A stretch of 64,000 nucleotides of DNA from Flavobacteriales bacterium (GTDB lineage: Bacteria; Bacteroidota; Bacteroidia; UBA10329). The position numbers and the translations under genes are program-made. A model generated the notes under the pieces. It ran no database searches and was not told where the DNA came from. It saw nothing but the letters and a program-made list of their open reading frames with translations. Below, piece by piece: positions 12,988-60,204 of the stretch; the first letter of the stretch is position 1, and each line of letters starts with the position of its first letter. The stretch is from assembly GCA_021739625.1 (NCBI GenBank), contig JAIPBJ010000006.1, positions 5,334-69,333 of the forward strand. The letters are read 5' to 3'.

Positions 12988-15507
12988 CTAAAACTTCGCC
13001 ACCAGCTTCACATTCAACTGTCGCGATGTGAGGTAGTTCGGCACAGCATATTGGCGGTTGGTGATATCAGAGATCCAAAGGTAGGACAGCGTATTGTTGG
13101 TTCCCAGCAGGTTGAACACCTCCAGACTCACCCACAGCGACTTGAGGTAGTGCAGCGGATTCTTCTTGGGAAACTCCTTCTTCTCGCCCTTTATCATGTA
13201 GGAGAAACCGATATCGACCCTGCGGTAGGGCGGAATGCGCAACGTGTCCTGATAGCGCTGGCTGTCGGGCGGACCAAAGGGCATGCCTGTGCCCAGCACC
13301 AGATTGAGGTGCATCTTGAGCATGGGCAGGCGCGGCACATAGTCCTGAAAGAAGAGGGAGAAGTTTACACGCTGGTCGGTGGGGCGCGGAATGTAGCCTG
13401 GCTCCACACGGGTGCTGTCCACCGGCACATTGTTCTCGGTGATACCGAACTGGATCTGCTCACCATCGGAGTTGTAATAGTTGTAATAGAAATCGTCCTT
13501 GATGTCCTCCTGCACGGTCATCACGCTCACGCTGGCCCACGACTCTATGCCCTTGACGAACTCACCGTTTATCTTCAGGTCGAGACCTGTGGCATAGCCC
13601 CTTGCGTTGTTGGTGGCGTAGTAGCGGATGCGCACGTTGTCGATCTCGTAGGGCACGATGTTGTCCAGATACTTGTAATAGACCTCGGCCACGAGCTTGA
13701 AAGGACGGCCCCAAGCGAAGAAATTGTAGTCGGTGCCGATGACCGCATGATAGGATTCCTGCGCTTTCAGGTTCTTGTTGAGCTGACCATTGAGGTCGCG
13801 CAGCTCGCGGTAGAAAGGCGGTTGATAGTACATGCCGCCCGACACGCGGAACACCACATCGCGCTTCCATCTGGGGTTGAAGGCATAGCTGGCGCGGGGC
13901 GTGGCGATGAACTGGCCGTTCACATCCCAATAGTTGAATCGGACACCGGCCGTCAGCGTGTGCTTCGAGGTGTCGGAGAACAGCCATGTGTTCTGCAAAT
14001 GGCCGGAGATGCGGTTGCTCTGAAGGCTGAGGTCGGTCTTCAGCACATTGGACAACGTAAGTTCATTCGGACTGAGCGGAATGCTGTAGCCCGATGAGTC
14101 GTTCATGTTCCATTCGTTCAGCTCATCGGTGATGTACTCGTGCTGATACTGGAGGCCCCAGTCCAGCTTACGGTGGCCGTCCAGCCAATGGCCGATGTGC
14201 TTCACTGTTCCCACATTCACCGTCAGGTAATTCCTTGCATGGTCGAGGAACGTGCCGATGCCCCTGTTGAAGGCCACCTCGCCCAGATTGTCGCTGCCGA
14301 AATTGTTGTCGAGCACCCCCAGCCAGTATTGGCCCTGCACATCGAAGGTCTCGCTCTCGTTGCTGCGATAGCCCGAGGCGATGAACTTGAAGCGCAACCG
14401 CTGATCGGGACGGTACTCGGCCGTGAGCGCGCCCGTCATCGTCTCGAACGTGTTCACCTCCTGCCCATCAAAGAACACAGTGAAGCGCAACGCCTCGCTG
14501 ATGGTGCCGAAATCGGTCTCGCGGTTCTCTGGGATGAAGCGGTACTGATTGAGCGAATAATGGCCAAGAAAACCGATGTCCCACTTGTCGTTCACCTCAT
14601 AATTGAGCAGCGCCTGCGCGTCCCAGAACTGTGGTTTGTACTGCCCGTCCGTGTCCAGACTGCCCAGCACATAAGAGTTGCTGCGATAGCGCAGACCGCC
14701 TATCCAAGAGAACCTGTATTCCTTGGTCGCCCCTTCCAAATGCAGCGCACCGCCCAGCAGACTGCCCGATGCGGTGGCCGCGAACGAGCGTGGCCTTCTG
14801 TATTTCACATCGAGCACAGAGGAGAGCTTGTCGCCATACTTGGCCTCGAACCCGCCTGCCGAAAAGCTGATGCCCTCCACCATGTCGGGGTTGATGAAGG
14901 TGAGTCCCTCCTGCTGCCCGCTGCGCACCAGGAACGGACGGTATATCTCCACATCGTTCACATAGATGAGGTTCTCGTCATAGTTGCCGCCCCGCACATT
15001 GTATTGCGAACTGAGCTCGTTGTTGCTGCTCACCCCGGGAAAGGTCTTGAGCAAAGCCTCGATGCCACCGCCTGCCGATGGAATGATGACGGCCATCTTG
15101 GGGTCGATGCGCTGCATGGTGCTTTTGCGGTTGCTCTCGTCAGATATGAGCACCTCGTCCACCACATTGTCCTTCAGTTTCAGGATGCGGTTCAGGGTGC
15201 GCACCTCCCCTGCTGCGAGGGTGATGTCGTAGCCCTGAGGCTGAAATCGGATGTGCGAGAACGACAGCCGCACCTGCTGCCCGGCAGGCACCTGCACATT
15301 GTAGGATCCGAGGCTGTCCGATGCCGTGCCGAAGCTCGTGCCAATCACCGCGATGCTCACATAAGGAATGCCCATGCCCTGCTCATCGCGCAGTTGGCCC
15401 TGCACTGTGGCGCGGTCCTGGGCTTGGGCCAATGGGGCGATGGCCGACAGCATCAGCACAAAGACCAATGGCCAGACGAGACGTGGCCTGCTGTTGCCGA
15501 AACCCAC
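12988..15507 (-). CDS. TonB-dependent outer-membrane receptor with N-terminal carboxypeptidase-regulatory-like domain; most likely GTG start at 15507
   Basis: GTG at 15507 precedes a canonical signal peptide (GFGNSRPRLVWPLVFVLMLSAIAPLAQA|QD). This is followed by a CarbopepD_reg domain, a plug domain, a long beta-barrel and a C-terminal aromatic residue (..LVAKF). The ORF-track ATG at 15807 would translate the 21-bp repeat array as an N-terminal extension ahead of the signal peptide, which is implausible. Confidence 0.8.
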   Translation of the reverse strand: MGFGNSRPRLVWPLVFVLMLSAIAPLAQAQDRATVQGQLRDEQGMGIPYVSIAVIGTSFGTASDSLGSYNVQVPAGQQVRLSFSHIRFQPQGYDITLAAGEVRTLNRILKLKDNVVDEVLISDESNRKSTMQRIDPKMAVIIPSAGGGIEALLKTFPGVSSNNELSSQYNVRGGNYDENLIYVNDVEIYRPFLVRSGQQEGLTFINPDMVEGISFSAGGFEAKYGDKLSSVLDVKYRRPRSFAATASGSLLGGALHLEGATKEYRFSWIGGLRYRSNSYVLGSLDTDGQYKPQFWDAQALLNYEVNDKWDIGFLGHYSLNQYRFIPENRETDFGTISEALRFTVFFDGQEVNTFETMTGALTAEYRPDQRLRFKFIASGYRSNESETFDVQGQYWLGVLDNNFGSDNLGEVAFNRGIGTFLDHARNYLTVNVGTVKHIGHWLDGHRKLDWGLQYQHEYITDELNEWNMNDSSGYSIPLSPNELTLSNVLKTDLSLQSNRISGHLQNTWLFSDTSKHTLTAGVRFNYWDVNGQFIATPRASYAFNPRWKRDVVFRVSGGMYYQPPFYRELRDLNGQLNKNLKAQESYHAVIGTDYNFFAWGRPFKLVAEVYYKYLDNIVPYEIDNVRIRYYATNNARGYATGLDLKINGEFVKGIESWASVSVMTVQEDIKDDFYYNYYNSDGEQIQFGITENNVPVDSTRVEPGYIPRPTDQRVNFSLFFQDYVPRLPMLKMHLNLVLGTGMPFGPPDSQRYQDTLRIPPYRRVDIGFSYMIKGEKKEFPKKNPLHYLKSLWVSLEVFNLLGTNNTLSYLWISDITNRQYAVPNYLTSRQLNVKLVAKF

Positions 15508-15754
15508 CGATGGTCCGTGGATGCCCACCGATGGTCCGTGGAGGCCCACCGATGGTCCGGGGATGTCTACCAGTGATCCGTGGAGGCCCACCGATGATCC
15601 GTGGAGGTCCACCGATGGTCCGTAGAGGTCCACCGATGGTCCGTGGATGTCCACCGATGGTCCGTGGAGGTCCACCGATGGTCCGTGGATGTCCACCGAT
15701 GGTCCGTGGAGGCCCACCGATGATCCGTGGAGGTCCACCGATGGTCCGGGGATG
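15503..15754. repeat. Tandem array R1: 12 copies of a 21-bp unit (consensus CCACCGATGGTCCGTGGATGT), intergenic, abutting the receptor start codon
   Basis: Direct reading: 12 head-to-tail 21-mers with a few point differences (GGATG/GGAGG alternation), open in several frames on both strands. Confidence 0.9.
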
Positions 15755-15810
15755 TCTACCGGTGTGCGGTCTGCGTCATAGAGATCAAGGCGTGCAACTT
15801 TCCTCACCGC

Positions 15811-19962: not shown

Positions 19963-20044
19963 TGGAAGCCTGCAAAGGGAGGGCAGCAGACCTGACCCCT
20001 GTTGCCAGTCCATTGCAGACCTTTGGCAGCCAAAGCCGCACCGC

Positions 20045-40721: not shown

Positions 40722-41489
40722 GTGCCCCGCATCATCAAATACATCCTGTATGACATCCTGCGAACGCGGTTCATACTGTTCTACACGTTGTTCCTGCTGC
40801 TGAGCGCTGTGGGCATGTATCAACTCGACAGCGACACATCGAAGGTGGTGCTCAGCATGATGAACATCGTGCTGATCGTGGTGCCGCTGGTGAGCATCGT
40901 GTTCACCACCATCCATTTCTACAATTCCTACGAATTCATCGAATTGATGCTGGCGCAACCGGTGAACCGCACCGTGGTGTTCCTGTCGCAATACCTGAGC
41001 GTGGCGCTCTCGCTACTGCTGGCCTACACCGTGGGCATCGGGCTGCCGATGGTGTTCTACGGCACGGAGGCGAGCGGGCTCACGCTCATCCTGTCGGGGG
41101 CCATGCTCACGTTGGTGTTCGTGTCGCTTGCATTCCTTTCGGCCGTGCTCACACGCGACAAGGCGAAAGCCATCGGTGTGGCACTGCTGTTCTGGTTCTA
41201 CTTCTCGCTGATCTTCGATGCCTTCGTGCTGTGGATCCTCTACAGTTTCAGCGACTATCCGCTGGAGAAGGTGACCGTGGCCCTCATTGCCCTCAACCCC
41301 GTTGACCTTGCCCGCATTCTGATGATCCTGCAGCTCGATGTGTCGGCCCTCATGGGCTACACGGGCGCATTCTTCAAGGACTTCTTCGGTGGCGGAATGG
41401 GTTTCGCCTTTGCCACGGGCGTGCTGCTGCTCTGGGTGGCCGTGCCGCTGGGGCTGGCCATGCGCGTGTTCAAGCGCAAGGATCTTTGA
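40722..41489 (+). CDS. nosY: ABC-2 type permease NosY
   Basis: Six-TM ABC-2 permease immediately after nosF. Confidence 0.8.
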   Translation: MPRIIKYILYDILRTRFILFYTLFLLLSAVGMYQLDSDTSKVVLSMMNIVLIVVPLVSIVFTTIHFYNSYEFIELMLAQPVNRTVVFLSQYLSVALSLLLAYTVGIGLPMVFYGTEASGLTLILSGAMLTLVFVSLAFLSAVLTRDKAKAIGVALLFWFYFSLIFDAFVLWILYSFSDYPLEKVTVALIALNPVDLARILMILQLDVSALMGYTGAFFKDFFGGGMGFAFATGVLLLWVAVPLGLAMRVFKRKDL

Positions 41490-41507
41490 CGGGCAAACGG
41501 AATTCTT

Positions 41508-41675
41508 TTCATCAGAATGAGGTTTTCCTTCATCAGAATGGAGAATTCCTTCATCAAAAATCAGAATTCCTTCATCAGAATCGAAAATTCCTTCATCAAA
41601 AATCAGAATTCCTTCATCAGAATGGAGAATTCCTTCATCAGAATGGAGCATTCCTTCATCAGAACCCTCAGATCT
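41508..41675. repeat. Tandem array R2: 8 copies of a 21-bp unit (consensus TTCATCAGAATGGAGAATTCC) in the convergent gap between nosY and the outer-membrane gene
   Basis: Direct reading of 8 head-to-tail 21-mers with internal variants (AATGGAG / AAAATCA / AATCGAA); begins 19 nt after the nosY stop and ends at the stop codon of the minus-strand gene. Confidence 0.9.
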
Positions 41676-43785
41676 TGAACCGCACCTGCACCCGGATGTC
41701 CGTGCGGTGGTTGCCGTCTATCTCCTCCAGGCCGCTGCCCACGGTGGGGCGGTCGTGGTAGAAGAGGTTGGCGATGCGGAACCACACGCTGATGTTGCGC
41801 GTGATGTCGTAGCGGATGTTGAGGTACGCTTTCATCCCCTTGTAGTAATAGGCAGGGAAGGAATAGGCATAGAGGATGTCGTTCTCGTAGGCATAGATGC
41901 GGGCGTTGTAGGTCTCCGTGTCGAAATAGGCCAACCGCGTGCTGAACGAGACCGGGAAGCTGAGCGGTTTGAAGATGAGGTCCTGAAAGACCATGAAGCC
42001 CTGCTCCACATCGCCATCGCCCCTTCTGTAGCGTGAATACTCCACACGGCTGCGCAGCGACCACGCCTTGCTGAGACGGTAGCTCAGGTGCAGGCGGTAG
42101 GAGCTTCGCCTCTCATCCTCAATGTAGCGGATAGGCTCGGTGTTGCTGTCCGCAGAAACGGTCACCTCCTTGTTCTTCTGTCGGAAGCGGAACGAGATGT
42201 CGAGGTTGCGATTGGGGCGATAGCTGAGCTGCGCGATGCCTTCATAACCATAAGAAGGACTGTTGACCCCATAGCGCAGCCACGGGAAACGGAACAGGTC
42301 GAAGAACCCCGTCACATACCAGCCCCTGAACGGGTTGAGGCTCACTCCGAGATAATAGCCCGTCTCGTTGTTCATGCGCGAATTCTCGGTGACAGCATTG
42401 GCGTAAACCGCCTGATAGTCGGCCTCCAGATGGCGCACCATGGCCGTCACGGTCACTTTCGGGTCAAGCGTCATGAGCACCCCGTGCGTGGTGGCGAAAC
42501 CGAGGTTCTGGCTCATGCTGAATTCGCCATAGAAATTGAAATTGCGGAAAAGATAGCTGTAGTCCACCCCGAAGTTGCTGTTCTGTGTGCCGCTGAACTC
42601 GTTCACGTTGTAGAGGTCTGCACTGCGGGTGAAGGGTTTGGAGAAATGGTAGCCCACCCCTGTGAAACCCACCTGCAACCGCTTGTGGCGATAGTTGATG
42701 TTGCTCCCGTAGATGAGTTCATCGATCGCCTGTTTCTTCTCCAACTCACCGGGCGTGCGGTGGAATCCGCTGCTGAAAATGGAGCTGAACGCCTCCTCGG
42801 CCTCTGTCAATGTGTCGCTGGTGATGGAGGTGATGCTCGCGTCCACAGATTTGTAGCTGATGAAGGCCGTCACGTCCACCCGCTTGCCGATGGATATGGT
42901 GGCCGCGCCCCCGCGCAGGAAACGGTTCTCATCCACCGAGGTGTAGGGCCGCAGCCCCTGCGCATTGCGCTTCACCCCTACTCCATTGGCCGACTTGCCG
43001 AAGGCCAGCCCGCTGAAGAACGTGAGCCCCTGCCCGAACTGCGCCTGAAAATCGCCCAATGCTGCGGCCTTCAGAATGCCGATGTTGCGGACGAAGAGGT
43101 GCGCACTGTAGAAGTCGAAGCCCTGCTTCTGGGTTCCGGTGAAGAATTCCTCGCCCGCGTCCTTCTCCATCGTCACGCCCCAGCTCACACGGTTGCCGAA
43201 CTGAAAGCGGTATCGCGCCCACACGCGGTCGGGCGAGCCGAGATAGCGGCTGTTCGGGCTTTGGGCCAGCAGGCTGTCCTCAATCTCGGTGTAGCCCTTC
43301 TTCTCCTCCAAAGTGCGGTCGTAACGAACCACCAGCTCATGTCGGCCCTCCTTCCACATATTGCGCAGGTTGAACTTCGCGCTGCCCGACTCATTCACCG
43401 TGACGAATGGCATGATCATGCGGATGGTGTTCAGGGAGAATCCCTTGATGCCTTGCAATTCGAGGATTGACAGCAGATTTCCGTGGTCCTCGCGATGTTT
43501 CAGCAAAGCATTGATGGCGATGTCGTCCAGAATGATGAGGCGTTCGAGGTCATCGCGGGTGGCGGCATTGATGTTGAGCGGCTTCTCGCTGTAGATGAGC
43601 AGGTCGTCCACCAAGGTGTTGTAGTCGATGTTCTCATCGTTCTCACCGGCCTGCTCCGCGATGGTCTCCACCAGCACCTCTATCATCAGGCTATTGCGGG
43701 TGTCATTCTCCTCCTGCGCCCATGCTCTGCCTGCTGCCGACAGGGGCAGAAGCATGAGGAGCAGATATCGGCTGAGGGTTCTCAA
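41668..43785 (-). CDS. Outer-membrane protein with N-terminal helix-hairpin-helix (ComEA-like) region and C-terminal beta-barrel-like domain
   Basis: Signal peptide; HhH-like segment (LNINAATRDDLERLIILDDIAINALLKHRE..LSILELQGIKG); long alternating amphipathic C-terminal region ending in an aromatic-rich strand. Confidence 0.5.
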   Translation of the reverse strand: MRTLSRYLLLMLLPLSAAGRAWAQEENDTRNSLMIEVLVETIAEQAGENDENIDYNTLVDDLLIYSEKPLNINAATRDDLERLIILDDIAINALLKHREDHGNLLSILELQGIKGFSLNTIRMIMPFVTVNESGSAKFNLRNMWKEGRHELVVRYDRTLEEKKGYTEIEDSLLAQSPNSRYLGSPDRVWARYRFQFGNRVSWGVTMEKDAGEEFFTGTQKQGFDFYSAHLFVRNIGILKAAALGDFQAQFGQGLTFFSGLAFGKSANGVGVKRNAQGLRPYTSVDENRFLRGGAATISIGKRVDVTAFISYKSVDASITSITSDTLTEAEEAFSSIFSSGFHRTPGELEKKQAIDELIYGSNINYRHKRLQVGFTGVGYHFSKPFTRSADLYNVNEFSGTQNSNFGVDYSYLFRNFNFYGEFSMSQNLGFATTHGVLMTLDPKVTVTAMVRHLEADYQAVYANAVTENSRMNNETGYYLGVSLNPFRGWYVTGFFDLFRFPWLRYGVNSPSYGYEGIAQLSYRPNRNLDISFRFRQKNKEVTVSADSNTEPIRYIEDERRSSYRLHLSYRLSKAWSLRSRVEYSRYRRGDGDVEQGFMVFQDLIFKPLSFPVSFSTRLAYFDTETYNARIYAYENDILYAYSFPAYYYKGMKAYLNIRYDITRNISVWFRIANLFYHDRPTVGSGLEEIDGNHRTDIRVQVRFKI

Positions 43786-43872
43786 AGGGAAAATAGAAAA
43801 TTGAAAATTGAAAATCGTGGTTGCGTCACCTGTTCTGTGGACTATCGACCGTGGACTATGGACTCCCGACCC

Positions 43873-44706
43873 TTACCCCTTCTTCTTCACATTGAACATG
43901 TATGCCAACGATGCCTTGGGCGAGAAACCGAGGATGGGATGGATGGCCCCCGCGATGTCGAAATGGAAATGCTTGAGACGGAGCCCGAAACCGATGTCCA
44001 TGTGCAGCGGTAGGGTTCCCATTCCCAAGCGGATGGCGAACTGTTCCACAGGAAGGTATTCGATGCCGATCTTCACATTGGGGTCGAGCACAAGATCCTT
44101 CTCCACCTCCACGGCCATGAGCACCTTCTTCGAGAAATCGTATTGAAGGCCGAGGCGGAAGTTCATCGGTACACGCTCATCCGTGCCGTCCTCCAGCACG
44201 GTGCGGGTAAGGTTATAGGCATGGAATCCTGCGCGCAGTTTGGGCGTGATCTGCGATAGGAGACCTATCTCTGCCACAAAGCTGTGACGGTCGCCATAGC
44301 CTTCGGCCAGATGTGTGTTCAGATAGTTGAGCTGCAGGCCCACGCTCAGGAAGGGGAAGAGCTGCTTGCCGTAGGCCAGTCCGTAGCGGCTCTGGTTGTA
44401 GAGCGTATTGCCGAACCTCGCGAAGCTGATTCCGAAGGTGCCGAACTTGCTGGCAGGAATGGCAATGGTGGCGGCCTGCAGGTTGAGGTCGGGCAGCAGG
44501 AAACGGTTCTCGTAATAGACCGCAGCACCCGCCTGTTGCAGACCCGCCAATGCGGCCTGGTTGTGGTGAACGGCCCAGAGGTCGGTGAGCGCCACCGTGG
44601 CATGGCCCATGCCTGCCGAGCGCGCCCCCACCGGGAAATCGCTGCTCTGCGCAGAAGCGGACACGGCCGTCAGCAGAAAACCTATGGAGAGTAGAGTTGA
44701 CCTCAT
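43873..44706 (-). CDS. Small outer-membrane beta-barrel protein, FadL/PorV-like N-terminal motif (possibly PorQ/PorP-family T9SS-associated); family uncertain
   Basis: Signal peptide, GARSAGMGHATVALTD motif near the N-terminus, alternating beta-strand pattern, C-terminal ..MFNVKKKG. Confidence 0.45.
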   Translation of the reverse strand: MRSTLLSIGFLLTAVSASAQSSDFPVGARSAGMGHATVALTDLWAVHHNQAALAGLQQAGAAVYYENRFLLPDLNLQAATIAIPASKFGTFGISFARFGNTLYNQSRYGLAYGKQLFPFLSVGLQLNYLNTHLAEGYGDRHSFVAEIGLLSQITPKLRAGFHAYNLTRTVLEDGTDERVPMNFRLGLQYDFSKKVLMAVEVEKDLVLDPNVKIGIEYLPVEQFAIRLGMGTLPLHMDIGFGLRLKHFHFDIAGAIHPILGFSPKASLAYMFNVKKKG

Positions 44707-44873
44707 TCAGCCCGATGATGTGGCCGAAAGTACTACTTACGGCTATGGGCCGGGCGTTATGCCTCGGTTAAGTGATGTGGGAATTGAGAAAATGGAAAAT
44801 CGTAACCGAGGCCACCTCTGACCTTCACGACTACCTACCATTTTCAATTTTTCATTTTCTCGAAGTATGTTAA

Positions 44874-46583
<1,710 letters not shown>

Positions 46584-46838
46584 GCATAAGGCTCGCATAG
46601 CCTCGCGGTTCCTTTTTCCTGATGGTCGTTTTCGATGGTCGTTACTGATCGCCCTTGGCGGCAGTGGATGCCTTAACTTCAATATACAGAGGACTACGTA
46701 GGGCCGGTTCAATGCCCTGAATGTCCTTTGACCGTTGAAGGCCGGCCGGTCACACTGGCCTCCAAGGAATCCAGAAACCTTTCAAACGGGGCGGATCTGA
46801 AAAGCCAAACGAGTAGGGAACCCAAAGACCACATCATC

Positions 46839-48077
46839 ATGAACACAGTTTCTACACTCAAAAACCTTCCGATCGCACTGGTCCTGGGCCTCGCCCTTCT
46901 GCAATCGGCATCGGCCCAAACATGGACACTGATGGACGAGACCTTCACCCAGAGCATGAAGGAAATCGAATTCTTCGATGAGAACACAGGCATCGTAAGC
47001 CGGGGCTATGCCATGAACACGACCTCAGATGGCGGCACCTCATGGGGCAGCGACATCGATTTCACATGGACAGTGAACGCGCTCAAGTACACCGGGGGAT
47101 CCACCCTTTTTCTGGGCACCGGAAACGGCACGATCTTCAAATCTGTGGACGGTGGTGCCAACTGGTCTCAGATTGGAGGCTACATCGTCAGCGACATCCG
47201 CAGCATGGCCTTCAATGGGTCGAACGGCATTGTGGTGGACAACAACTGCAAGATCGCATGGACCAGCAATGGTGGCGACAGTTGGACTGCCATACCAAGC
47301 GATGACCTCTGCGGAAACCTGAGCCGCTTGGACCATGTGGACATGCCCTCCTCGACCGTGGCCTATGCGGGCGGAAACAACGGATACATGTTCAAGTCAA
47401 CGGACGGTGGTCAGACTTGGACGGCCATCACCTCACTGCCAGCAGAATTCGATGATATGAGCGGAATGTCGTTCCCGACCACCGAGGTGGGCTACATCAC
47501 CGGCAGCGTAATGAACGAGAATACGGCACTTGTGCTCAAGACCACCGATGGCGGTGCCAACTGGACGGACATCAGCGCTGGTCTGACCCAGAGCATATCG
47601 GACATCTTTGCAGTGAACGCCACCACAGTGTATGTGGGTGCAGGGGGCAACAAGATCTACAAGTCAACGGACGGAGGTGACAATTGGGCCGTGGATTATA
47701 CCCATCCTGTCTGCACGCAGTGCGCCATCAAGGAATTCGATCTGGGCGGCACCACGCTTTATGCCCTGTTCGACAACGGTGGAGAGCACAAGAAGATCGT
47801 GAAGCTGGCCAACGCCACGGTAGGGATCAACGACACACCGGACCAGAACACCTTCAGTGTCCGTCCCAACCCGAGCAATGGGATATTCAGCATCACTTTT
47901 CAAAAGGCCCCCGTACAACTGGATGTCTATGACGTTCTGGGCAATCTGTTGTTCTCAAAGGGAAACCTTTCCCTCACCAATGTTCAACTGGATCTGAGCC
48001 ATCTGTCCAAGGGCATTTATGTGATGAAGGCGTTCGATGGCACTGGCGCAAGCACGCAACGGTTGGTGATCGACTGA
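46839..48077 (+). CDS. Secreted BNR/Ycf48-like beta-propeller protein with T9SS type-A C-terminal sorting domain
   Basis: Signal peptide (LPIALVLGLALLQSASAQ); repeated S-x-D-G-G-x-(T/N)-W BNR motifs; C-terminal LDVYDVLGNLLF...KGIYVMKAFDGTGASTQRLVID CTD. Confidence 0.7.
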   Translation: MNTVSTLKNLPIALVLGLALLQSASAQTWTLMDETFTQSMKEIEFFDENTGIVSRGYAMNTTSDGGTSWGSDIDFTWTVNALKYTGGSTLFLGTGNGTIFKSVDGGANWSQIGGYIVSDIRSMAFNGSNGIVVDNNCKIAWTSNGGDSWTAIPSDDLCGNLSRLDHVDMPSSTVAYAGGNNGYMFKSTDGGQTWTAITSLPAEFDDMSGMSFPTTEVGYITGSVMNENTALVLKTTDGGANWTDISAGLTQSISDIFAVNATTVYVGAGGNKIYKSTDGGDNWAVDYTHPVCTQCAIKEFDLGGTTLYALFDNGGEHKKIVKLANATVGINDTPDQNTFSVRPNPSNGIFSITFQKAPVQLDVYDVLGNLLFSKGNLSLTNVQLDLSHLSKGIYVMKAFDGTGASTQRLVID

Positions 48078-48103
48078 CACCTGCCCGGAGCTTTGAAGGA
48101 AGA

Positions 48104-48135
48104 AGGCTGTCTCCCACACGGGGGCAGCCTTTTTC
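48104..48135 (+). terminator. Rho-independent terminator (GGCTGTCTCCCACACGGGGGCAGCC + TTTTT)
   Basis: Hairpin with ACAC loop and T-run 27 nt after the stop; shares the core TCCCACACGGGGGCA with the terminator at 6290-6324. Confidence 0.6.
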
Positions 48136-48342
48136 CATGACCTGCAAGCCCTGTTCGAAGACCGATGGAATGCAGGACGTTACGGCAGCAGGAGACATGC
48201 AATTCATCGCCCCGACACGGGTCTGCAACCGTGTTCGGGCATCGCACTGGCACAAGGGAACGGGTCATCTTCTTCCACATAAATCCTGATGCCCGCCCCC
48301 CTCTGCTAATCATATCTTTGCCGCCCTTAATTCTCAATTGGA

Positions 48343-50223
48343 ATGGATAAGAACTCGGCCATCGGGCTGACACTGATACTGCTGATATTCGTTGGATTCA
48401 GCTATTTCAACCAACCCTCGGAAGAGGAGGTCGCGGCTGCGAAGCACTCACAGGACTCGGTGGCGGCCGCACAGATAGAGCAACAGCAGGCACAGGAGAT
48501 GGCCGTTGTGAAGGAGGCCATCACTGAGCTTCCCACGGGGTTGGACACCACCCTTACGGACTCGGCCGCGCAGGTGGCGCTCACCTCACAGTTCGGGGCT
48601 TTCGGGGCTGCGGCCAAGGGCGAGGACGGTGTGGTGGTGCTGGAGAACGATGTGCTGCGCATGGAGGTGAGCCGCAAGGGCGGACACCCGCTGTCGGTGC
48701 AACTGAAGGACTACCGGACCCACGACTCGCTGCCGCTGATGCTCTTCGAGGGAGAGCAGAACCGGTTCGCTCTGGAATTCTTCTCGCAGAACAGGCGCAT
48801 CAGCACACAGGACCTCTATTTCCAACCATCGAACGAGGGCATCACCGTGACGGGCGATGGCGAGCGCAACCTGAGCATGAGGCTGAATGCCGGAGAAGGC
48901 CGCTATCTCGAATATGTCTATACGCTGAAGGGCAATGACTACATGGTGGATTTCGACATCAACCTTGTAGGGTTCGACCAGCTGATGGAGCGCAATGCCA
49001 CGAGCATCGACCTGCATTGGCGGGCCGACATGCCTTCGCAGGAGAAGAGTCTGAAGACCCAGCAGGAGAGCAGCACGGTCTATTACCGTTTCAATGACGG
49101 TGAAGTGGATTATCTCTCTGAGCGCAAGGACGAGAAGCAGAGCTTTGTGAACCGGTTGCAGTGGATCGGTTTCAAACAGCAGTTCTTCAGCACGGTGCTG
49201 ATCGCAGAGAGCGGTCTGGAGCCGCCCAGCGAGGTGGAGACCATTCACGATGAGGCCAGCCTCGATGTGGTGAAGACCTGCGATGCGCGGCTCACGCTGC
49301 CATTCGCGCATGGTGCGATGGAGCAGGTGGCGTTCAGATTCTATTTCGGCCCCAACCACTACAAGACACTGAAATCGTACGACATCGGCCTCGAACACCT
49401 CATTCCGTTGGGCTGGGGCATATTCGGGTGGGTGAACAAGTATGCGGTGATCCCCGTCTTCAACCTGCTGAGCGGGACCGGATGGAGCTATGGCATCATC
49501 ATTCTGATACTGACGCTGCTGCTGAAACTGATACTGGCGCCATTCACCTACAAGAGCTATCTGAGTTCGGCCAAGATGAAGGTGCTGAAACCGGAGATCG
49601 AGGAGCTGAACAAGAAATTCGAGGGCAAGGACGACCCCATGGCCAAGCAGCAGGCCACCATGGCGCTCTATAGCAAGGCGGGGGTGAACCCGATGGGCGG
49701 CTGCCTGCCCATGCTGCTGCAGATGCCCATTCTCATCGCCATGTTCCGGTTCTTCCCTTCAAGCATCGAGCTGCGGCAACAGCCTTTCCTGTGGGCCGAG
49801 GACCTGAGCAGCTATGACAGCGTTCTGAGCCTGCCGTTCGAGATTCCGTTCTATGGCGCCCACGTGAGCCTGTTCACCATACTCATGACCATCAGCACGC
49901 TCATATACACGCATAAGAACATGGCCATGAGCGCGGGCAACCCGCAGATGGAGCAGATGAAATGGATGATGTACCTCATGCCCTTCACCATGCTGTTCTG
50001 GTTCAACAGCTATGCATCGGGACTGAGCTACTATTATTTTCTGGCCAACATGGTGTCGTTCGGGCAGACCGCGCTTTTCCAACGTTTCGTGGACGAGGAC
50101 AAGCTCCACAAACAGATTCAGGAGAACAAGAAGAAGCCCGTGAAAAAGTCGGGGTTCCAGAAGCGTTTGGAGGACATGGCGAAGAGCCGTGGCTACGAGG
50201 CCCCCAAGCCGAAGAAGAAGTGA
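48343..50223 (+). CDS. yidC: Membrane protein insertase YidC
   Basis: Large periplasmic domain followed by the conserved five-TM core (..GWSYGIIILILTLLLKLILAPFTYKSY..PMGGCLPMLLQMPIL..) and a basic C-terminal tail. Confidence 0.9.
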   Translation: MDKNSAIGLTLILLIFVGFSYFNQPSEEEVAAAKHSQDSVAAAQIEQQQAQEMAVVKEAITELPTGLDTTLTDSAAQVALTSQFGAFGAAAKGEDGVVVLENDVLRMEVSRKGGHPLSVQLKDYRTHDSLPLMLFEGEQNRFALEFFSQNRRISTQDLYFQPSNEGITVTGDGERNLSMRLNAGEGRYLEYVYTLKGNDYMVDFDINLVGFDQLMERNATSIDLHWRADMPSQEKSLKTQQESSTVYYRFNDGEVDYLSERKDEKQSFVNRLQWIGFKQQFFSTVLIAESGLEPPSEVETIHDEASLDVVKTCDARLTLPFAHGAMEQVAFRFYFGPNHYKTLKSYDIGLEHLIPLGWGIFGWVNKYAVIPVFNLLSGTGWSYGIIILILTLLLKLILAPFTYKSYLSSAKMKVLKPEIEELNKKFEGKDDPMAKQQATMALYSKAGVNPMGGCLPMLLQMPILIAMFRFFPSSIELRQQPFLWAEDLSSYDSVLSLPFEIPFYGAHVSLFTILMTISTLIYTHKNMAMSAGNPQMEQMKWMMYLMPFTMLFWFNSYASGLSYYYFLANMVSFGQTALFQRFVDEDKLHKQIQENKKKPVKKSGFQKRLEDMAKSRGYEAPKPKKK

Positions 50224-50258
50224 GCATGGGTTCAAGGTTCAAGGTTCAAGGTTTGGGG

Positions 50259-50762
50259 ATGATGGCCGCACTCAGTGCGATACTGTTGACCGGCAGTTGC
50301 AAAAGCAAGGAACAGACCACGGTGAGGCCCACGGAGACCACAACCTCTGCGACCACAACTGCCACCGAAGGCCCGGCCATTCTGGCCACCATAGAGCGCA
50401 CCTCGTGCTTCGGCAGTTGCCCCATCTACAAGGCCACCTTTTTCGACAATGGCGAGGTGATGTATGTGGGCAGGAATTTCGTGACCAACATCGGCACCTA
50501 CACCACCCTCATCTCGGCCGAAGAGCTGCAAGGGATAAGGACCATGGCCGAGGACGTGGGCTATTTCCTGCTGGAGGACGCCTATCCCACCCCCATATCG
50601 GATTTCCCGAAATGCATCACATCGGTGCAGATGGACGGGAAGAAGAAGAGCGTTCTGAACGGTGAGAACGCCCCGCGCGACCTGATCGGTCTTGAGCGCC
50701 ACCTCGATGGCCTGCTGAAGGAACGCGAATGGGTGAAGGTGTCGGACGTGAGCCGCTACTGA
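50259..50762 (+). CDS. Hypothetical lipoprotein
   Basis: Lipobox MMAALSAILLTGSC followed by a Thr-rich linker; conserved-looking Cys pairs (SCFGSCPIYKA). Confidence 0.5.
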   Translation: MMAALSAILLTGSCKSKEQTTVRPTETTTSATTTATEGPAILATIERTSCFGSCPIYKATFFDNGEVMYVGRNFVTNIGTYTTLISAEELQGIRTMAEDVGYFLLEDAYPTPISDFPKCITSVQMDGKKKSVLNGENAPRDLIGLERHLDGLLKEREWVKVSDVSRY

Positions 50763-52333
50763 CCCGGCAGCGGTCTGCGCGACCGTTCCTTGATCTCGTT
50801 GGCGAGCATGTCGATGGCACCGTCCTGTGCATCGAGCCGCAGATAGGAGCCCTTGCCCCTGCGGGCGATGCGCTTCATCATCCGCTCGGCATCATCATCG
50901 CCAGCATAGCCTGCCACCGAAAGGATGATGCCCTTGCCGGCATGGTCGGCAGCCATGAGAATGGCATCCTTCTCGGTGAACGATGAGGAGTTGAACATGC
51001 CATCGGTGACCAGAATGAGCTGATTGTTGCCGCCCTCGACCCATTGCGCGGTAAGTTGGGCGTAGGCCTCCTTCATGCCTTTGACCCCACTGGTGTAGCC
51101 TTCGGCCTGGAGGTCGAAAATGAGGTCGATGATGGTCTCGGGCGCGGTGACGGATGTGGGGGGCAGCACGGTGAACACCGCTGCGTTGAACGCCAGCACC
51201 GAGAGCCTATCGATGGGCCGCATCATGCCGATGAGACGCGCGGCCGCTGCCTTGAGCCTGTCGAGCTTGGCATCCTTGTTCATGGACGATGAGACATCGA
51301 GCAGCAGCACGATGTTGTTGGGGCGATAGGTGGCCTCGGCAAATTCGGGGGCGGGCGCCTGCACTGCCGTGGCCGGTGGTGTCTGCTCCCCAACGGACAC
51401 TGGGGCCACTGGGGCAGCGGGCGGTTCGTCAAACTGGTCGTTGACGTTGATGCCAAGGTCGGTCTCCGGTTCCTCCACCTTTTTGGGAGGCTGTGGCACA
51501 GGCCGCACGGGCCCGGCCCATCGGTCTTCGGCCACCGGTTCCTCCATCTGTTCGTTGACGGAGACCCCCATGTCGGCCACCGGTGCTTCGGCCGGCACCC
51601 TGTGCACGGTGACCGCCTGGGCGGGCCGCTCAGGCTGTTGGGCGGGGGGCTGCATTCCGCCCTTCTTCCGGGGTTCGACCATGATGATGACGGTTCCCTG
51701 CCTGCGTTCGAGCGCAATCTCCTCCACGGTGGGCCGATAGTCGGGATGCTCCACCTTGGCTGTGAAGCGGCCCATCTCCAGTCTGGTGCGCACAAGTCCG
51801 CGACTGTCGGTGGTGTAGGTGGCGCGGCTTTCCTCTTTCTTGAACAGCCCGACCGTTGCGCCCACCACCTGCTGGCCCGTTGAGCGGTCCACCACGGTGA
51901 TGGTGCTGGTGCCCGAGGACTGTGCGGGCTGGTCTGCGCTGAATGTGGGGCAGGCGGTGAGGGCGTTGTTGCGGAGCGAGACGATGTTGCCGCGCAGGGT
52001 GAGGCGCTGCGGCCTGTCGGAGGCGTTGGAAAAGAGCTCCACCTCTTTGGAGAAGGGGCCGTTGTCGGCCGTGTAATAGTGGATGGTGACCTCGGCCGTC
52101 TCACCGGGGCCGATGCTCCTGTTGGGAAGGACGACCTGCACATCGCGCCCGAAGTGCTGGGGCAGGAACATGAGTTTTGACGTGCCGGTGTTGGTGAGGC
52201 GGAAGACCGCAGGCGGGCTGTCCCAATCGCGCACGGTGCCGAAGTTGAAGGAGGTGCTCTGCCAGTCTATGCGCTGCCCCGATGCCATGGAGCAGGCCAA
52301 TGTGATGAACAGGGAAAGCAGTGGGCGTCTCAT
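50756..52333 (-). CDS. von Willebrand factor A domain protein with N-terminal beta-sandwich region and central proline-rich linker (probable start at ATG 52333)
   Basis: Signal peptide MRRPLLSLFITLACSMASGQ; C-terminal VWA/MIDAS motif VLLLDVSSSM...LVTDG; low-complexity P/A/E linker. Confidence 0.7.
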   Translation of the reverse strand: MRRPLLSLFITLACSMASGQRIDWQSTSFNFGTVRDWDSPPAVFRLTNTGTSKLMFLPQHFGRDVQVVLPNRSIGPGETAEVTIHYYTADNGPFSKEVELFSNASDRPQRLTLRGNIVSLRNNALTACPTFSADQPAQSSGTSTITVVDRSTGQQVVGATVGLFKKEESRATYTTDSRGLVRTRLEMGRFTAKVEHPDYRPTVEEIALERRQGTVIIMVEPRKKGGMQPPAQQPERPAQAVTVHRVPAEAPVADMGVSVNEQMEEPVAEDRWAGPVRPVPQPPKKVEEPETDLGINVNDQFDEPPAAPVAPVSVGEQTPPATAVQAPAPEFAEATYRPNNIVLLLDVSSSMNKDAKLDRLKAAAARLIGMMRPIDRLSVLAFNAAVFTVLPPTSVTAPETIIDLIFDLQAEGYTSGVKGMKEAYAQLTAQWVEGGNNQLILVTDGMFNSSSFTEKDAILMAADHAGKGIILSVAGYAGDDDAERMMKRIARRGKGSYLRLDAQDGAIDMLANEIKERSRRPLPGQ

Positions 52334-52507
52334 GTGGCTAAAGGTAGCCAACGGGATGGGGGGAGAGGAGACCTGTTTCCCAGCGGAGACACATTCTCCA
52401 GCGGAGGGCTTTATGGAAAAGTGCCGACCCATGCCCTAAGGGCCGCTCCACATTGCTGTGGAACGGTTTTTTTTTGGTACTTGCCGATTCTTACAGTGAA
52501 ACCCTGT

Positions 52508-52738
52508 GATAGGAAATATGGAACACCTGATAGGAGAACTGAAACACCAAATAGGAGAAATGGAACACATGATAGGATATATGGAACATATAATAGGATG
52601 AACAGAACATCTGATAGGAGAAATAAAATGCCTGACAGGATACATGGAACATTTGATAGGATAAATGGAACATACGATAGGAAAGACTGAACATCTGATA
52701 AAAGAAATGGAACACACGTTAGGAGTGATAGAACAGAT
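52508..52738. repeat. Tandem array R3: 11 copies of a 21-bp unit (consensus GATAGGAGAAATGGAACATCT) in the divergent promoter region
   Basis: Direct reading of 11 head-to-tail 21-mers; AT-rich; lies between the start of the VWA gene (-) and the start of the hypothetical gene at 52820 (+). Confidence 0.9.
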
Positions 52739-52819
52739 GTGTTCCATGGCTCCGATCGCATGAGAGACCTGTACGGGCAAATGAATCTCGGAACCGGATA
52801 CCGTTAGAACAATGAATTC

Positions 52820-53467
52820 TTGAAGAACATGATCGACAGACCCTACACCTGCACCGACCCTCAGGCCGTTCAGCGCTGCGAGAGCATGCTGCTGGCCTAT
52901 GACGACCACATGGCCGCCTTCACTGCTCTGGACCCGGATTTCAATGCCACGTTCCGCAACGACTGGCGCGCGGCCATCGATGCCTGTATCGCCTATCCCA
53001 CGGATGAGAGCACGCTCGACCTGCAAAAGGGCCACGGGCAGGTCATTGACCGATGCATGGAACAGTGCCGCATGGCCCTTGCCGACCTGCGCTATTATGC
53101 CAAGAAGGCATACAGCACCAAGGGCCGCTACCGTGTGTTCGGGTTCGAGCGTCACAACAGATTGCGCGGTTCAACGGCCAACTATGCGGTGTTCATGCAC
53201 ACGCAGCATCGGCTGGCGCTGCGCTTTCAGCCCGACCTCGCGGCCAAGGGCATGACCCCTGCGCAGACCGATGCCCTGCTCACCTCTGCCACCGCCCTCT
53301 GGGATGCCGAAGTGGGGCAGGAGACCTTCAAACGCGAACGCATCCTGCACACCGTGGAGCGCAGCGAGGCCTTCCGCCATCTCTGGTCCTTTGTGCAGAG
53401 GTTGCAGCACGCGGCCGATGCCGTTTTTGAGAATGATGCGGTGGGAAGGGGGCTATTTGTGGGATGA
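52820..53467 (+). CDS. Hypothetical Cys-rich protein (215 aa), no recognised family
   Basis: GC-rich ORF with normal codon usage; no signal peptide; several conserved-looking Cys (C..C......C...C). Confidence 0.5.
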   Translation: MKNMIDRPYTCTDPQAVQRCESMLLAYDDHMAAFTALDPDFNATFRNDWRAAIDACIAYPTDESTLDLQKGHGQVIDRCMEQCRMALADLRYYAKKAYSTKGRYRVFGFERHNRLRGSTANYAVFMHTQHRLALRFQPDLAAKGMTPAQTDALLTSATALWDAEVGQETFKRERILHTVERSEAFRHLWSFVQRLQHAADAVFENDAVGRGLFVG

Positions 53468-53589
53468 TCGGGGCCGAGGAACGCGACAGGTATTGGAAGG
53501 TGATCGAGGGGAAGGTGGGGTGAGGGAGGCGTTGCCGCCCCGTCCACGTCCCTTCATAAAGGCTAATTTTGGCCGCAAGCAATAGCATC

Positions 53590-54825
53590 ATGGTCAACCG
53601 CATAGGCATAGGCAATTTCAAGTCGATCGACAAGCTGGAGTTCGAGCTTGGCCGCTTCAACGTGTTCATCGGTGAGAACGGCTGCGGAAAGAGCAACATC
53701 CTTGAGGCAATTGGGATGGGTGCTGCAGCGTCTGCCAATAAACTGGAGAATGAATTTCTGAGCAGTAGGGGCATTCGGGTTACCGATTCTCTTTACATGC
53801 GATCTGCTTTTTCTTCCAAAAACTCTGGGAAGGACATCAGCATTTCAATTCAGATTCGAGATATTGATGTGGAATGGTCGATTTCGAACGATAATCAACC
53901 GTACTCTTCATGGCAACAGGAAGCAGTTGTGAAAGATGGTGTCGATTCGTCCCCTGAAACTGAAGAACCATCCGAAGTTGACAGCCTATTGAAATCATGG
54001 AAGGCACTTGAGACGGACACCTACAATCTTTTAGTTGAAGAAAAAAAAACGGAAGATCCAACTCGTAAGAGAGAAATTGGAAAAGTTCTAAAGCGTGTGG
54101 AGGAATTCTTGCCTCGACTTCAGGAGACGTTTCAGCAAATAATTGCCAAGACGTTACACATACCCTTAGGGCAATTCCAGATTTACTCCCCTGAAAACTC
54201 GTCATTGAGGGCGTTTGAAAGAGAAGGCCAAATAGAGCCGTTGGGTCTCAAAGGCGAAGGGCTCTTCAAACTGCTTAAGACCTTTGCACACACAAATCCT
54301 GAAGCTATCCAACGGATCGCTGAGGAATTGCAGGTCTTCGATTGGTTTGAAAGCTTTCAGTTGCCAGACAAGACAATGTCGGACGAGCGGTACATCAAAG
54401 TGAAGGACCGCTTCCTTGATGATGCGCTGGATCAGTTCGACCAAAGGAGCACCAACGAGGGTTTCCTTTTCGTGCTCTTCTACCTCGCACTGTTTATCAG
54501 CAAGGACACGCCCAAGTTCTTCGCCATCGACAACATAGAGGCTTCGCTAAACCCTAAGCTGTGCAAGGAACTGATCGCCAAGCTCAACCGCCTTTCGGCA
54601 GAGAACAGCAAGCAGGTGATCATGACCACCCACAGCCCGGCCGTGCTCGATGGTCTCGACCTGACGGATGACGAACAGCGGCTGTTCGTGGTGTATCGCA
54701 ACAGTGAGGGGCGCACACGTGTAAGGCGGGTAGAGCCGCCCAAAGTGATGGCAGGCGAGGAGGAAGTGCCGCTGTCAGAGGCGTTCGTGCGCGGTTATCT
54801 CGGAGGCCTCCCTAAGAATTTCTGA
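53590..54825 (+). CDS. AAA_21-type ABC ATPase (OLD/PARIS AriA / AbiLi-like defence ATPase)
   Basis: Walker A GENGCGKSN, ABC-signature-like STNEGF, the AAA_21-diagnostic IDNIEASLNP block (variant of lIDEPEnsLHP) and TTHSP H-loop. A long inserted coiled-coil region lies between the N- and C-terminal halves. TAATTTTG promoter element at 53564-53571. GC is visibly lower than in the flanking genes. Confidence 0.75.
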   Translation: MVNRIGIGNFKSIDKLEFELGRFNVFIGENGCGKSNILEAIGMGAAASANKLENEFLSSRGIRVTDSLYMRSAFSSKNSGKDISISIQIRDIDVEWSISNDNQPYSSWQQEAVVKDGVDSSPETEEPSEVDSLLKSWKALETDTYNLLVEEKKTEDPTRKREIGKVLKRVEEFLPRLQETFQQIIAKTLHIPLGQFQIYSPENSSLRAFEREGQIEPLGLKGEGLFKLLKTFAHTNPEAIQRIAEELQVFDWFESFQLPDKTMSDERYIKVKDRFLDDALDQFDQRSTNEGFLFVLFYLALFISKDTPKFFAIDNIEASLNPKLCKELIAKLNRLSAENSKQVIMTTHSPAVLDGLDLTDDEQRLFVVYRNSEGRTRVRRVEPPKVMAGEEEVPLSEAFVRGYLGGLPKNF

Positions 54826-54828
54826 GCG

Positions 54829-59540: not shown

Positions 59541-59616
59541 CGAGGTTCCGAGTTCAAAGTTTAAGGTTCGAGAGCGAGTCAACTTTGAACCTTGAACTCT
59601 GAACCTTGAACTACTT
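59541..59616. repeat. Palindromic TTGAACC-heptad repeat element in a convergent intergenic gap (likely bidirectional terminator)
   Basis: GTTCGAGGTTCCGAGTTCAAAGTT...AACTTTGAACCTTGAACTCTGAACCTTGAAC: inverted copies of the GTTCAAAGTT / AACTTTGAAC motif able to form a long hairpin between two convergent genes. Confidence 0.6.
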
Positions 59617-60111: not shown

Positions 60112-60120
60112 ATTGATAAA

Positions 60121-60152
60121 GGGACGAGGGACGAAGGACAAGGGACGAGAGG
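60121..60152. repeat. 31-nt GGGACGA-heptad element, copy A (GGGACGAGGGACGAAGGACAAGGGACGAGAGG)
   Basis: Near-identical (one mismatch) to copy B at 63242-63273. Confidence 0.85.
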
Positions 60153-60204
60153 CTTATACCTCATCAGCCCAACTTTGAACCTTGAACATTAAACTTTGAA
60201 CCCT

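Follow-up and report, generated by a model that had tools for sequence, protein, structure and literature searches.

Unrelated tandem arrays with a shared 21-bp period in a Bacteroidota lineage: the minisatellite between nosY and a convergent outer-membrane gene

Three tandem arrays (R1, R2 and R3) with one and the same period of 21 bp are found in the 64-kb stretch of DNA that was analysed here (the window; NCBI proteins MCF8256254-MCF8256298), and one of them, R2, fills the gap between nosY and its convergent neighbour. The question raised by this locus is whether such arrays are related to each other by descent or by function, or whether they only have their period in common. A sequence-only reading of the window had proposed that the common period is no coincidence, that R2 and R3 share a core sequence, and that the arrays belong to a genome-wide 21-bp family, as divergent copies of one ancestral element or as binding sites for related proteins.

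R2 (41508..41664; no strand is assigned to this or any other repeat feature described below) is a minisatellite with a 21-bp period, identified by TRF, by unit listing and by a pattern search. TRF reported 7.5 copies of period 21 with 83% matches and a score of 195, and a period of 42 was also scored over R2 (3.3 copies, 90% matches); period 7 was not reported. Read by eye, the array consists of seven full units, with starts at 41508, 41529 ... 41634, followed by an eighth unit that breaks off after 10 nt (TTCATCAGAA, 41655-41664), so that TRF and direct reading both confirm a real 21-bp array after nosY. The exact consensus TTCATCAGAATGGAGAATTCC has two occurrences, and four R2 units match it with at most three mismatches, against 0.01 expected by chance. 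The unit types are ordered A B C B A A', corresponding to a 42-bp higher order, and a degenerate partial unit (GGAATTCTT, 41499..41507), read from the sequence before the first full unit, resembles the 3' end GAGAATTCC of the R2 unit. The units abut without spacers, and a CRISPR array was rejected because there are no unique spacers between them.

The gene on the left of R2, nosY (40722..41489, plus strand), encodes an ABC-2 permease (Pfam ABC2_membrane_2; 'Cu-processing system permease' in JGI for cluster members) and is the last gene of a nos cluster comprising the NosZ propeller, NosL, NosD, NosF and NosY, after which synteny breaks. The convergent gene on the right (41668..43785, minus strand; MCF8256281.1) encodes a protein of 705 aa, to which weak matches in Pfam (HHH_3) and NCBIfam (comEA) assign a helix-hairpin-helix domain and which has, from its translation, an outer-membrane-barrel-like C-terminus (...RVQVRFKI); it is preceded by a PorV/PorQ-like gene, and synteny was used to delimit it as well. 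The stop codon TGA of nosY occupies 41487-41489 and the first full R2 unit begins 18 nt further on, one less than the 19 nt first counted, while the stop of the convergent gene (TCA on the plus strand, 41668-41670) lies 3 nt beyond R2. Nearly all of the 178-bp gap between the two stops is therefore R2, with 18 nt and 3 nt as the only flanking DNA outside the array. The earlier description of R2 as filling the convergent gap was thus correct, although the end that it had given, 41675, runs 8 nt into the neighbouring gene. As head-to-tail copies of a unit in the 10-100-bp range, located in non-coding DNA between stops at 41489 and 41668, R2 has the form of a minisatellite. Its existence is corroborated by a second assembly, since a Logan contig (SRR12088350) is identical to the window up to 41554 and ends two units into R2; its exact copy number is that of the MAG assembly, the only one spanning the array.

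Several searches were directed at a function, a structure or a dispersal of R2. Folding of R2 gave no excess of structure over shuffled controls for either strand (z = 0.67 and 0.14), searches of R2 for sites resembling terminators or promoters were negative, and the Rfam covariance models, at their gathering scores, gave a single match in the window, a DUF805 RNA at 46759-46823, and none at R2; an RNA element or terminator was rejected on these grounds. No inverted repeats were found flanking R2 or R1, and no unit of R1, R2 or R3 has a copy outside its own array in the 64-kb window. A degenerate two-unit R2 pattern, searched in JGI metagenome contigs, retrieved two unrelated chance matches only (a coding GTSGSDE repeat and an incidental match), scans of viral contigs found no arrays, plasmid searches gave no matches, and the R2 translations in all four open frames had no relative among 5.8 billion protein clusters. 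An origin of the R2 unit from ancestral flanks present in relatives was also rejected, as no match exceeded the shuffled controls. Most likely, R2 has no sequence-specific function and serves at most as a spacer between converging transcription units.

The genomic position of R2 became clearer from its relatives. The closest nos-cluster genomes (L002, L084 and L085) have a NosY that is at least 90% identical, and 3' of nosY they carry an RND efflux operon or its 1030-aa pump ORF; similarity to the nos clusters of relatives stops at 41485 (as aligned in L002). From the other side, L091 is collinear with the window over 41665-52355, from the outer-membrane gene to the VWA gene, with different neighbours on both sides and no array at the R2 site. 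As homology ends at 41485 and at 41665, R2 sits exactly on a lineage-specific junction, where, judging from these alignments, this lineage appears to have joined the nos cluster to a gene block located elsewhere in relatives. The far end of the same 10.7-kb block, at 52355, is ~150 bp from the start of R3, in the same intergenic gap. Three Logan assemblies (L092-L094) have a different array downstream of the same outer-membrane gene, consisting of four copies of a 42-bp unit of unrelated sequence. This array is embedded in ~300 bp of inserted DNA. The insertion sets in at the stop codon, opens with a perfect hairpin (L092) and has an imperfect 24-bp copy of the 3' end of the gene at its flank.

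R3 (52503..52735) comprises ~11 diverged direct units of 21 bp, supported by TRF (52507-52715, period 21, 10 copies, 71% matches, with 63- and 84-bp higher orders), by unit listing, by an independent Logan assembly and by an orthologous array in a relative. It lies in a divergent gap, with the VWA gene starting at 52333 on the minus strand and an ORF of 215 aa at 52820 on the plus strand. A single inverted unit (52737..52762), with arms 72-85% complementary in the repeat search, begins 1 nt past the degenerate eleventh direct unit, or at a 21-nt spacing if counted from the tenth. The Logan assembly of SRR12088350 provides a contig that is 100% identical to the window over 46035-54898, R3 included. 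P0097, an ORF of 158 aa found in Logan and ENA contigs, aligns without gaps to window positions 52783-52508 at 54% amino-acid identity, with all 11 R3 units in register and the flank aligning too, which indicates that R3 is an older array with positional conservation. Such unit-by-unit preservation in a relative speaks against rapid turnover of R3 and would agree with a function of the array. L091 has no array at the R3 site; it also lacks the segment beyond R3, where the window has a functionally unassigned ORF and two paired genes that are a PDC-M31-like defence candidate. An iteron/Rep arrangement was considered for R3 and rejected, the 215-aa ORF having no matches in Pfam, NCBIfam, PHROGs, PADLOC or plasmids.

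The GC-rich R1 (15504..15776, 12-13 units of 21 bp according to TRF, translation and the PGAP model; reported by TRF itself as 15504-15761, period 21, 12.3 copies, 87% matches) lies between the stop of a CarbopepD_reg_2 gene (15811-16524, minus strand) and the signal-peptide region of a TonB-dependent-receptor-like outer-membrane gene (12988..15507, minus strand; Pfam CarboxypepD_reg and Plug; signal peptide MGFGNSRPRLVWPLVFVLMLSAIAPLAQAQ). R1 is open in the reading frame of this receptor-like gene, whose start is likely the in-frame GTG in the last R1 unit or a codon slightly further downstream. Proteins in its 90%-identity cluster have 815-827 aa, with the exception of two models, the 939-aa PGAP model of this MAG and a 959-aa JGI protein, of which the N-termini consist of 7-residue repeats. 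The site is occupied by different arrays in different relatives: the window has 12-13 units with the gene-strand sequence ACCTCCACGGACCATCGGTGG, L086 and L087 have 12.5 units of TCAACCAAGGTTAAAGGCGCA, and L088 has nine units of CAAGAGTGGGATGCCTCTGCA, while L089/L090, L096/L097 and L098 have no array and ~100 bp only. Between L086 and L088 the receptor gene is 97.7% and the upstream gene 92% identical, whereas the 425-440 bp from the upstream stop to the signal-peptide cleavage site share nothing. Unrelated arrays beside a near-identical gene point to rapid replacement at the same site and with the same period. At some sites, then, arrays appear from these comparisons to have been gained, lost or replaced faster than the flanking genes diverged. 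The presence of three independent 21-bp arrays at one orthologous site also resembles a hotspot or selection. In the window, L086, L088 and L089/L090 no stop interrupts the receptor frame across the gap, and a start codon is found 0-4 nt from the stop of the upstream gene. This is the arrangement for translational coupling that has been described for MIRUs (PMC12548453, PMC3184786), and it would explain why only stop-free multiples of three are tolerated as arrays at the R1 site. Two ENA ORFs with different flanks contain repeats that match the R1 unit at 6/7 residues.

Replacement at an orthologous site already suggests that the units themselves are not conserved, and a comparison of all units gave the same picture. 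In the best circular alignment the R2 and R3 consensus sequences match at 13/21 positions (P ~0.02 by composition-preserving shuffles, and 0.023 in the comparison of all pairs). This is, however, the best among 28 unit pairs, those of relatives included, for which the smallest P expected by chance is ~0.03, so that the units are not demonstrably homologous. R1 matches R2 and R3 at 9/21 positions each (P ~0.7) and is unrelated to both. Aligning the consensus sequences therefore left the relatedness of R2 and R3 at chance level and the proposed common core not significant; two of the shared 'CATC' positions rank among the least conserved columns within R3, and the complementary bases noted at the differing positions are merely A/T swaps in AT-rich units. 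Descent from one ancestral element was contradicted by units that are unrelated even at orthologous sites, and binding sites for related proteins lost their basis with the chance-level similarity of R2 and R3 and the unrelated R1. What stood of the genome-wide family was its period, and not its unit sequences. An association with genes for outer-membrane or secreted proteins is seen for every array examined, although it is weak evidence, because such genes are common in Bacteroidota. Within each array the mismatches are clustered in a few columns (P = 0.0002-0.012); this could reflect constraint, and the inheritance of variants through block duplication explains it too.

The period was examined in a census of arrays of at least three copies in the window and nine non-redundant close-relative loci (227.5 kb in total), with periods of at least 10 bp counted as long, and with 1.25 Mb from 79 more distant NosY-bearing genomes for comparison. 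Among the 13 long arrays, six have a period of 21 bp and one of 42 bp, and one or two each have periods of 11, 12, 22, 44 and 101 bp. Under a flat null of 10-50 bp, the binomial probability of the share of 21 or 42 bp (7/13) is ~9e-7, which bears out the claim that the common period is no coincidence. Heptamers account for 15/19 short-period arrays. The distant genomes contained one long array and five heptamer arrays, which corresponds to 0.08 long arrays per 100 kb compared to 5.7 in the close relatives, a ~70-fold difference. The census is partly biased, since several loci had been selected for their orthology to sites with arrays, and L086 because its ORF was over-long. Of the close relatives, L098 is the most distant, and its arrays have periods of 9, 44 and 101 bp instead. 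The periods in this lineage are strongly biased to 7 and 21 bp (also 42 bp), and the 21-bp units differ at every locus. Plain slippage predicts no sharp preference for 21 bp.

The heptamers behave differently, as their motifs recur between loci (AAAATTG, AACCTTG, ACGAGGG) whereas the 21-mers do not. TRF identified (GAAAATT) x3.9 at 43789..43815, directly upstream of the start of the outer-membrane gene, and the motif is also present at the orthologous place in relatives (L091 at 9929, L092 at 1066). TRF and motif grouping further identified (GGTTCAA) x3.6 at 50229..50253, the motif family (AACCTTG) being found again at 59581-59611 and 60171-60215, and (AGGGACG) x4.3 at 60120..60149, found again at 63243-63271 and in L088 at 387-424. 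The idea that the 21-mers are triple heptamers was rejected (mean lag-7 autocorrelation 0.25, P = 0.40): without internal heptamer structure in the 21-mers, 'three heptamers' are not visible. Copy number did not differ between samples (L086 = L087; L092 = L093 = L094), and R3 has 11 units like P0097; the differences between relatives consist of the presence, absence and replacement of arrays at orthologous sites.

Taken together, we consider it probable that the arrays are minisatellites, hypermutable and mostly without function, produced by slippage and unequal recombination, which form a lineage-specific class, non-coding in the case of R2, with lengths biased to two helical turns. Such an array would begin as a short local tandem duplication in an unconstrained gap beside a gene end or a rearrangement junction. 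Replication slippage and unequal recombination of blocks of one to four units would then expand and reshuffle it, to which the higher orders of 42, 63 and 84 bp point. Finally, the length would be set by a bias, mutational or structural, that favours steps of 21 bp, equal to two helical turns and likewise to 3 x 7 bp. A unit of 21 bp spans two B-DNA turns, and among the remaining long periods those of 11, 22 and 44 bp come close to whole turns as well. The length bias itself is observed; as to its cause, the bias may follow whole B-DNA turns or a threefold heptamer step, two ideas that the data do not separate.

The main alternative, which we hold to be unlikely, is that the arrays are functional cis-elements: rows of sites for a DNA-binding or nucleoid protein placed two turns apart on the same face of the helix, in the manner of plasmid iterons or operator arrays, or additive bends, with selection acting on period and presence and not on sequence. 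The period would be accounted for, as it equals two B-DNA turns in six arrays and four turns in one, next to those near whole turns (11, 22 and 44 bp), and so would the same gene boundary in three lineages at which the period was kept and the sequence changed. R3 fits well, with its 11 direct units and one inverted unit upstream of an ORF and its conservation in register in a relative, and each array has invariant and variable columns. The unrelated units, however, would each require their own sequence-specific protein, A-tracts are not common to all units, and no Rep-like or other DNA-binding gene adjoins the arrays. The R1 site carries no array in 3/6 lineages, nor do the R2 and R3 sites in L091, and R2 is located between two stop codons with nothing obvious to regulate. 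A phased functional array is accordingly most plausible for R3, in register and with its inverted unit, and least for R2, between stops.

Somewhat more doubtful still is a dedicated process, or selection on DNA shape, by which this clade may install or maintain exact 21-bp arrays at gene boundaries and rearrangement junctions regardless of sequence. Among the candidates would be a nucleoid protein dependent on phased DNA, or a repair or recombination pathway in which junctions are filled through templated duplication of 21 bp. This would explain the three unrelated 21-bp arrays at one site in three close relatives, and also the 21-bp arrays at both ends of the relocated 10.7-kb block.

Small mobile insertions that target gene ends and carry or create the arrays, modelled on the BrickBuilt MITE or on MIRUs inserting at start and stop codons, seem improbable to us. 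Such an origin is suggested by the 42-bp array of L092, given its ~300-bp insertion at a stop codon, with the imperfect 24-bp gene-end duplicate and the perfect hairpin; filled and empty sites occur among close relatives, one edge of R2 lies 3 nt from a stop codon, R1 ends at a start codon, and the in-frame gap at the R1 site, starting 0-4 nt from the upstream stop, is MIRU-like (PMC12548453, PMC3184786). Against such insertions, every array has its own unit, of which none recurs in the window, and R1 and R2 have no terminal inverted repeats and almost no room for a leader or tail. The R2-pattern scan of the JGI metagenome contigs and the search of R2 translations in the protein clusters, as described above, gave no recurrence either, and although the two ENA ORFs carry R1-like repeats (6/7 residues) in other flanks, these matches could be due to chance, given the number of 7-residue repeats in such databases.

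As 21 bp are seven codons, protein-coding 7-residue repeats, or in the case of R2 an unannotated small ORF, were also weighed, and found very improbable. The plus strand of R2 is stop-free in every frame, with ORFs of 53 and 91 codons, but a stop-free 21-mer is common by chance (~0.37 per strand), R2 follows the stop codons of both flanking genes, and its putative peptides are without relatives in the 5.8 billion protein clusters. The three lineages with an array at the R1 site all have it in frame with the downstream gene, and annotation has extended the gene through such arrays (939 and 959 aa); the repeat peptides, however, are wholly different beside near-identical genes (HGPSVDL, STKVKDA, QEWDASA), they precede the signal peptide, and the array-free orthologues have 815-827 aa. 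It is possible that the leader at the R1 site is translated as a coupling device, and not for a protein function.

An artefact of short-read de Bruijn assemblers is hardly credible, because, although the source is a MAG, many such assemblers use k = 21, the Logan contig of the same sample ends two units into R2 and R1 (273 bp) exceeds a typical read, the units are imperfect and ordered in higher-order patterns, an independent assembler reproduces R3 base for base, 21- and 42-bp arrays recur across different samples and pipelines (NCBI, JGI and Logan assemblies), arrays are identical between independent samples (L086 = L087; L092 = L093 = L094), and Logan contigs 100% identical to the window show that the arrays are not peculiar to one assembler.

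As a rule, intergenic tandem repeats of bacteria are regarded as typing markers that stand in isolation, or else as copies belonging to a single mobile family. In this lineage the period (7 and 21 bp) is retained, the sequence can vary freely, and arrays lie at synteny breakpoints. Should the bias reflect a defined step of slippage or repair, or a need for helical phasing, it would offer a handle on the birth of bacterial minisatellites. There is a practical side as well: such arrays break short-read assemblies and mislead gene callers, as in the case of the receptor gene, which PGAP and IMG lengthened by ~100-130 codons.

Several known systems resemble the arrays described here in part. Bacterial minisatellites or VNTRs, in the same way as these arrays, consist of imperfect head-to-tail units of 10-100 bp in non-coding DNA, with sub-patterns, and are present or absent between relatives. 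Unlike VNTRs in general, the arrays of this lineage have a period concentrated on 21 bp across unrelated units, and unrelated arrays of the same period occupy one orthologous site, while copy-number variation between strains was not observed. Plasmid iterons consist of five to a dozen direct repeats of ~20 bp, two helical turns apart. The likeness is one of geometry only, in the 21-bp period of about two turns and in the inverted copy of R3 upstream of an ORF; in contrast to iterons, there is no Rep gene and no plasmid or phage similarity, the context is one of chromosomal housekeeping, and the units differ between orthologous sites. Enterobacterial REP/BIME elements are dispersed imperfect palindromes in the 3' zone between convergent operons. 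R2 likewise lies in the 3' zone between convergent genes, but it is not palindromic, forms no stable stem-loop (z 0.67 and 0.14, as above) and is not dispersed.

MIRUs have been described as units of 40-100 bp that belong to one sequence family, with 40-50 dispersed copies per genome (Supply et al. 1997, as cited in PMC3184786 and PMC12548453). As far as these accounts go, the R1 site shares with MIRUs the minisatellites at gene boundaries of operons, the filled and empty sites and an ORF that begins at the upstream stop, but the units here are of 21 bp and unique to each locus, and the frame at the R1 site runs into the downstream gene rather than ending at its start. A MIRU-type ORF, overlapping the stop and start of co-oriented genes, is not found at R2, where the flanking genes are convergent and, unlike in MIRUs, translational coupling is thus not possible. 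In Porphyromonas gingivalis, the MITE BrickBuilt contains a minisatellite of 23-nt units, has leader and tail subunits, ends in inverted repeats and occupies 19 loci with one and the same unit sequence (PMC4596501). It shares with the present arrays the phylum Bacteroidota, a spacer-less array of units of ~2 turns and an intergenic position near coding sequences (PMC4596501), whereas R1 and R2 are without inverted-repeat ends and no recurrence of units was found in the window, in the scanned JGI contigs (R2 pattern) or in the protein clusters (R2).

Heptamers have been reported as the commonest long simple repeats in prokaryotes, with polymerase slippage as the proposed cause (Mrazek 2007, as cited in PMC4679880). 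TAACTGA heptamer arrays are known from Beggiatoaceae, Cyanobacteria and some Bacteroidetes (PMC4679880), next to the cyanobacterial STRR. For some Bacteroidetes it has been noted that close relatives lack the heptamer array at the corresponding site, and a connection with rearrangement has been suggested (PMC4679880). As with STRR and heptamer arrays, the genomes studied here are rich in heptamers of few recurrent motifs, often beside start codons, and as with the heptamer arrays of Gramella and Aequorivita (PMC4679880), arrays can be absent at the same site in relatives and are associated with rearranged neighbourhoods. The R2 unit, in contrast to heptamer repeats, has 21 bp and no heptamer substructure, and the 21-mers form no motif families. 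Compared to all these systems, what appears to be new is that three features occur together: units that are unrelated while their period is conserved, replacement at one orthologous site in near-identical genomes, and a location at synteny breakpoints.

The receptor-like outer-membrane gene downstream of array R1 has been modelled with the 21-bp array at its upstream side included, both in the window (PGAP, 12988-15807, minus strand) and in the relative L086, whose counterpart is read through the array (10001-12880). The resulting models comprise 939 aa (MCF8256254.1, PGAP) and 959 aa (IMG), compared to 815-827 aa for the orthologues, as the gene callers PGAP and IMG absorbed the upstream array into the gene. 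The signal peptide of the receptor-like gene is located downstream of the array, and these models therefore probably owe their N-terminal 7-residue repeats to misannotation or to translation of a leader.

The gap separating this gene from its upstream neighbour, the CarbopepD_reg_2 gene (window 15507-15813; 2716-3095 in L088, 9898-10001 in L089 and 9922-10001 in L090, three further relatives), contains no stop codon in frame with the receptor in four of the six lineages. The two genes share one frame in the window, L088 and L089/L090, with a stop codon alone between them, and a start codon (GTG, TTG or ATG) is found 0-4 nt past the CarbopepD_reg_2 stop. Together, the open frame and the position of the start codon suggest that the two genes may be linked by reinitiation coupling or readthrough.

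Repeats resembling the translated R1 unit were also identified in two short metagenomic ORFs, P0095 and P0096, carried by ENA contigs 1182 and 600 bp long. Their SVGLRGP-type 7-residue unit is identical to the SVGLHGP unit of R1 at six of the seven residues, and their flanks differ from those of the window. Judged from the residues, these ORFs may stem from an array like R1 in a different genome or at a different locus, or they may resemble R1 by chance. Among translated repeats a period of 21 is common, as illustrated by L082, an unrelated metagenome contig matched by chance, which harbors a 21-bp array of 23 copies (TGTTTTAAGCTTCACTGATTT) at 9742-10235 and also a coding GTSGSDE 7-residue repeat.

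Directly 3' of the stop codon of the outer-membrane gene that in the window converges with nosY, three relatives (L092, L093 and L094) carry an insertion of about 300 bp (3238-3540 in L092), containing a perfect palindrome (AGACGTTGCATGCAACGTCT), followed by four 42-bp units and finally an imperfect copy of the gene's 3'-terminal 24 nt. A 60-aa ORF has been annotated by IMG/Logan on the L092-type 42-bp array.

Richness in minisatellites reaches beyond the 21-bp class, as seen from the 101-bp (4.6 copies, 2836-3297), 44-bp (4.9 copies, 4213-4431) and 24-bp (3.2 copies, 4436-4513) arrays of L098, which occupy gaps between genes for type I restriction, a PIN toxin and a Por_Secre_tail protein. 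L098 is a more distant relative than the other close relatives. In the relative L085 (GCA_030153465.1), the intergenic DNA preceding a gene for a secreted protein is densely filled with repeats over about 1 kb (19477-20468): a 33-bp unit (2.2 copies), CCCCCTGA (3.8 copies), ACCTGTT (5.7 copies), TATACATGCGTGAAACCTTGC (7 copies, with a 63-bp higher order) and another 21-bp unit (2.1 copies).

The window also contains an island, missing from the relative L091, in which an AAA ATPase (418 aa) and its 222-aa partner (53569-55497) match the candidate defence pair PDC-M31A/B in PADLOC (E = 2.6e-76 and 2e-12, respectively), accompanied by 215-aa and 154-aa ORFs of unknown function. A DUF805 RNA motif (Rfam; 46759-46823, plus strand; 57.3 bits, above the gathering score) lies at the beginning of the ORF at 46728-48077.

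Heptamer tandem arrays are common in the window (12945-12983, 43789-43815, 50229-50253, 59581-59611, 60120-60149, 60171-60215 and 63243-63271), with few motifs being reused (AAAATTG, AACCTTG, ACGAGGG). The array 5' of the outer-membrane gene is also kept in relatives, and that at 63243-63271 falls within the SufD coding sequence. Downstream of the nos cluster of L042, a Cytophagales MAG, three copies of GTTATCA and TAACTGA-type heptamers (10750-10890) are arranged with an apparent 21-bp period; these TAACTGA-type heptamers correspond to the motif described by MacGregor (2015).
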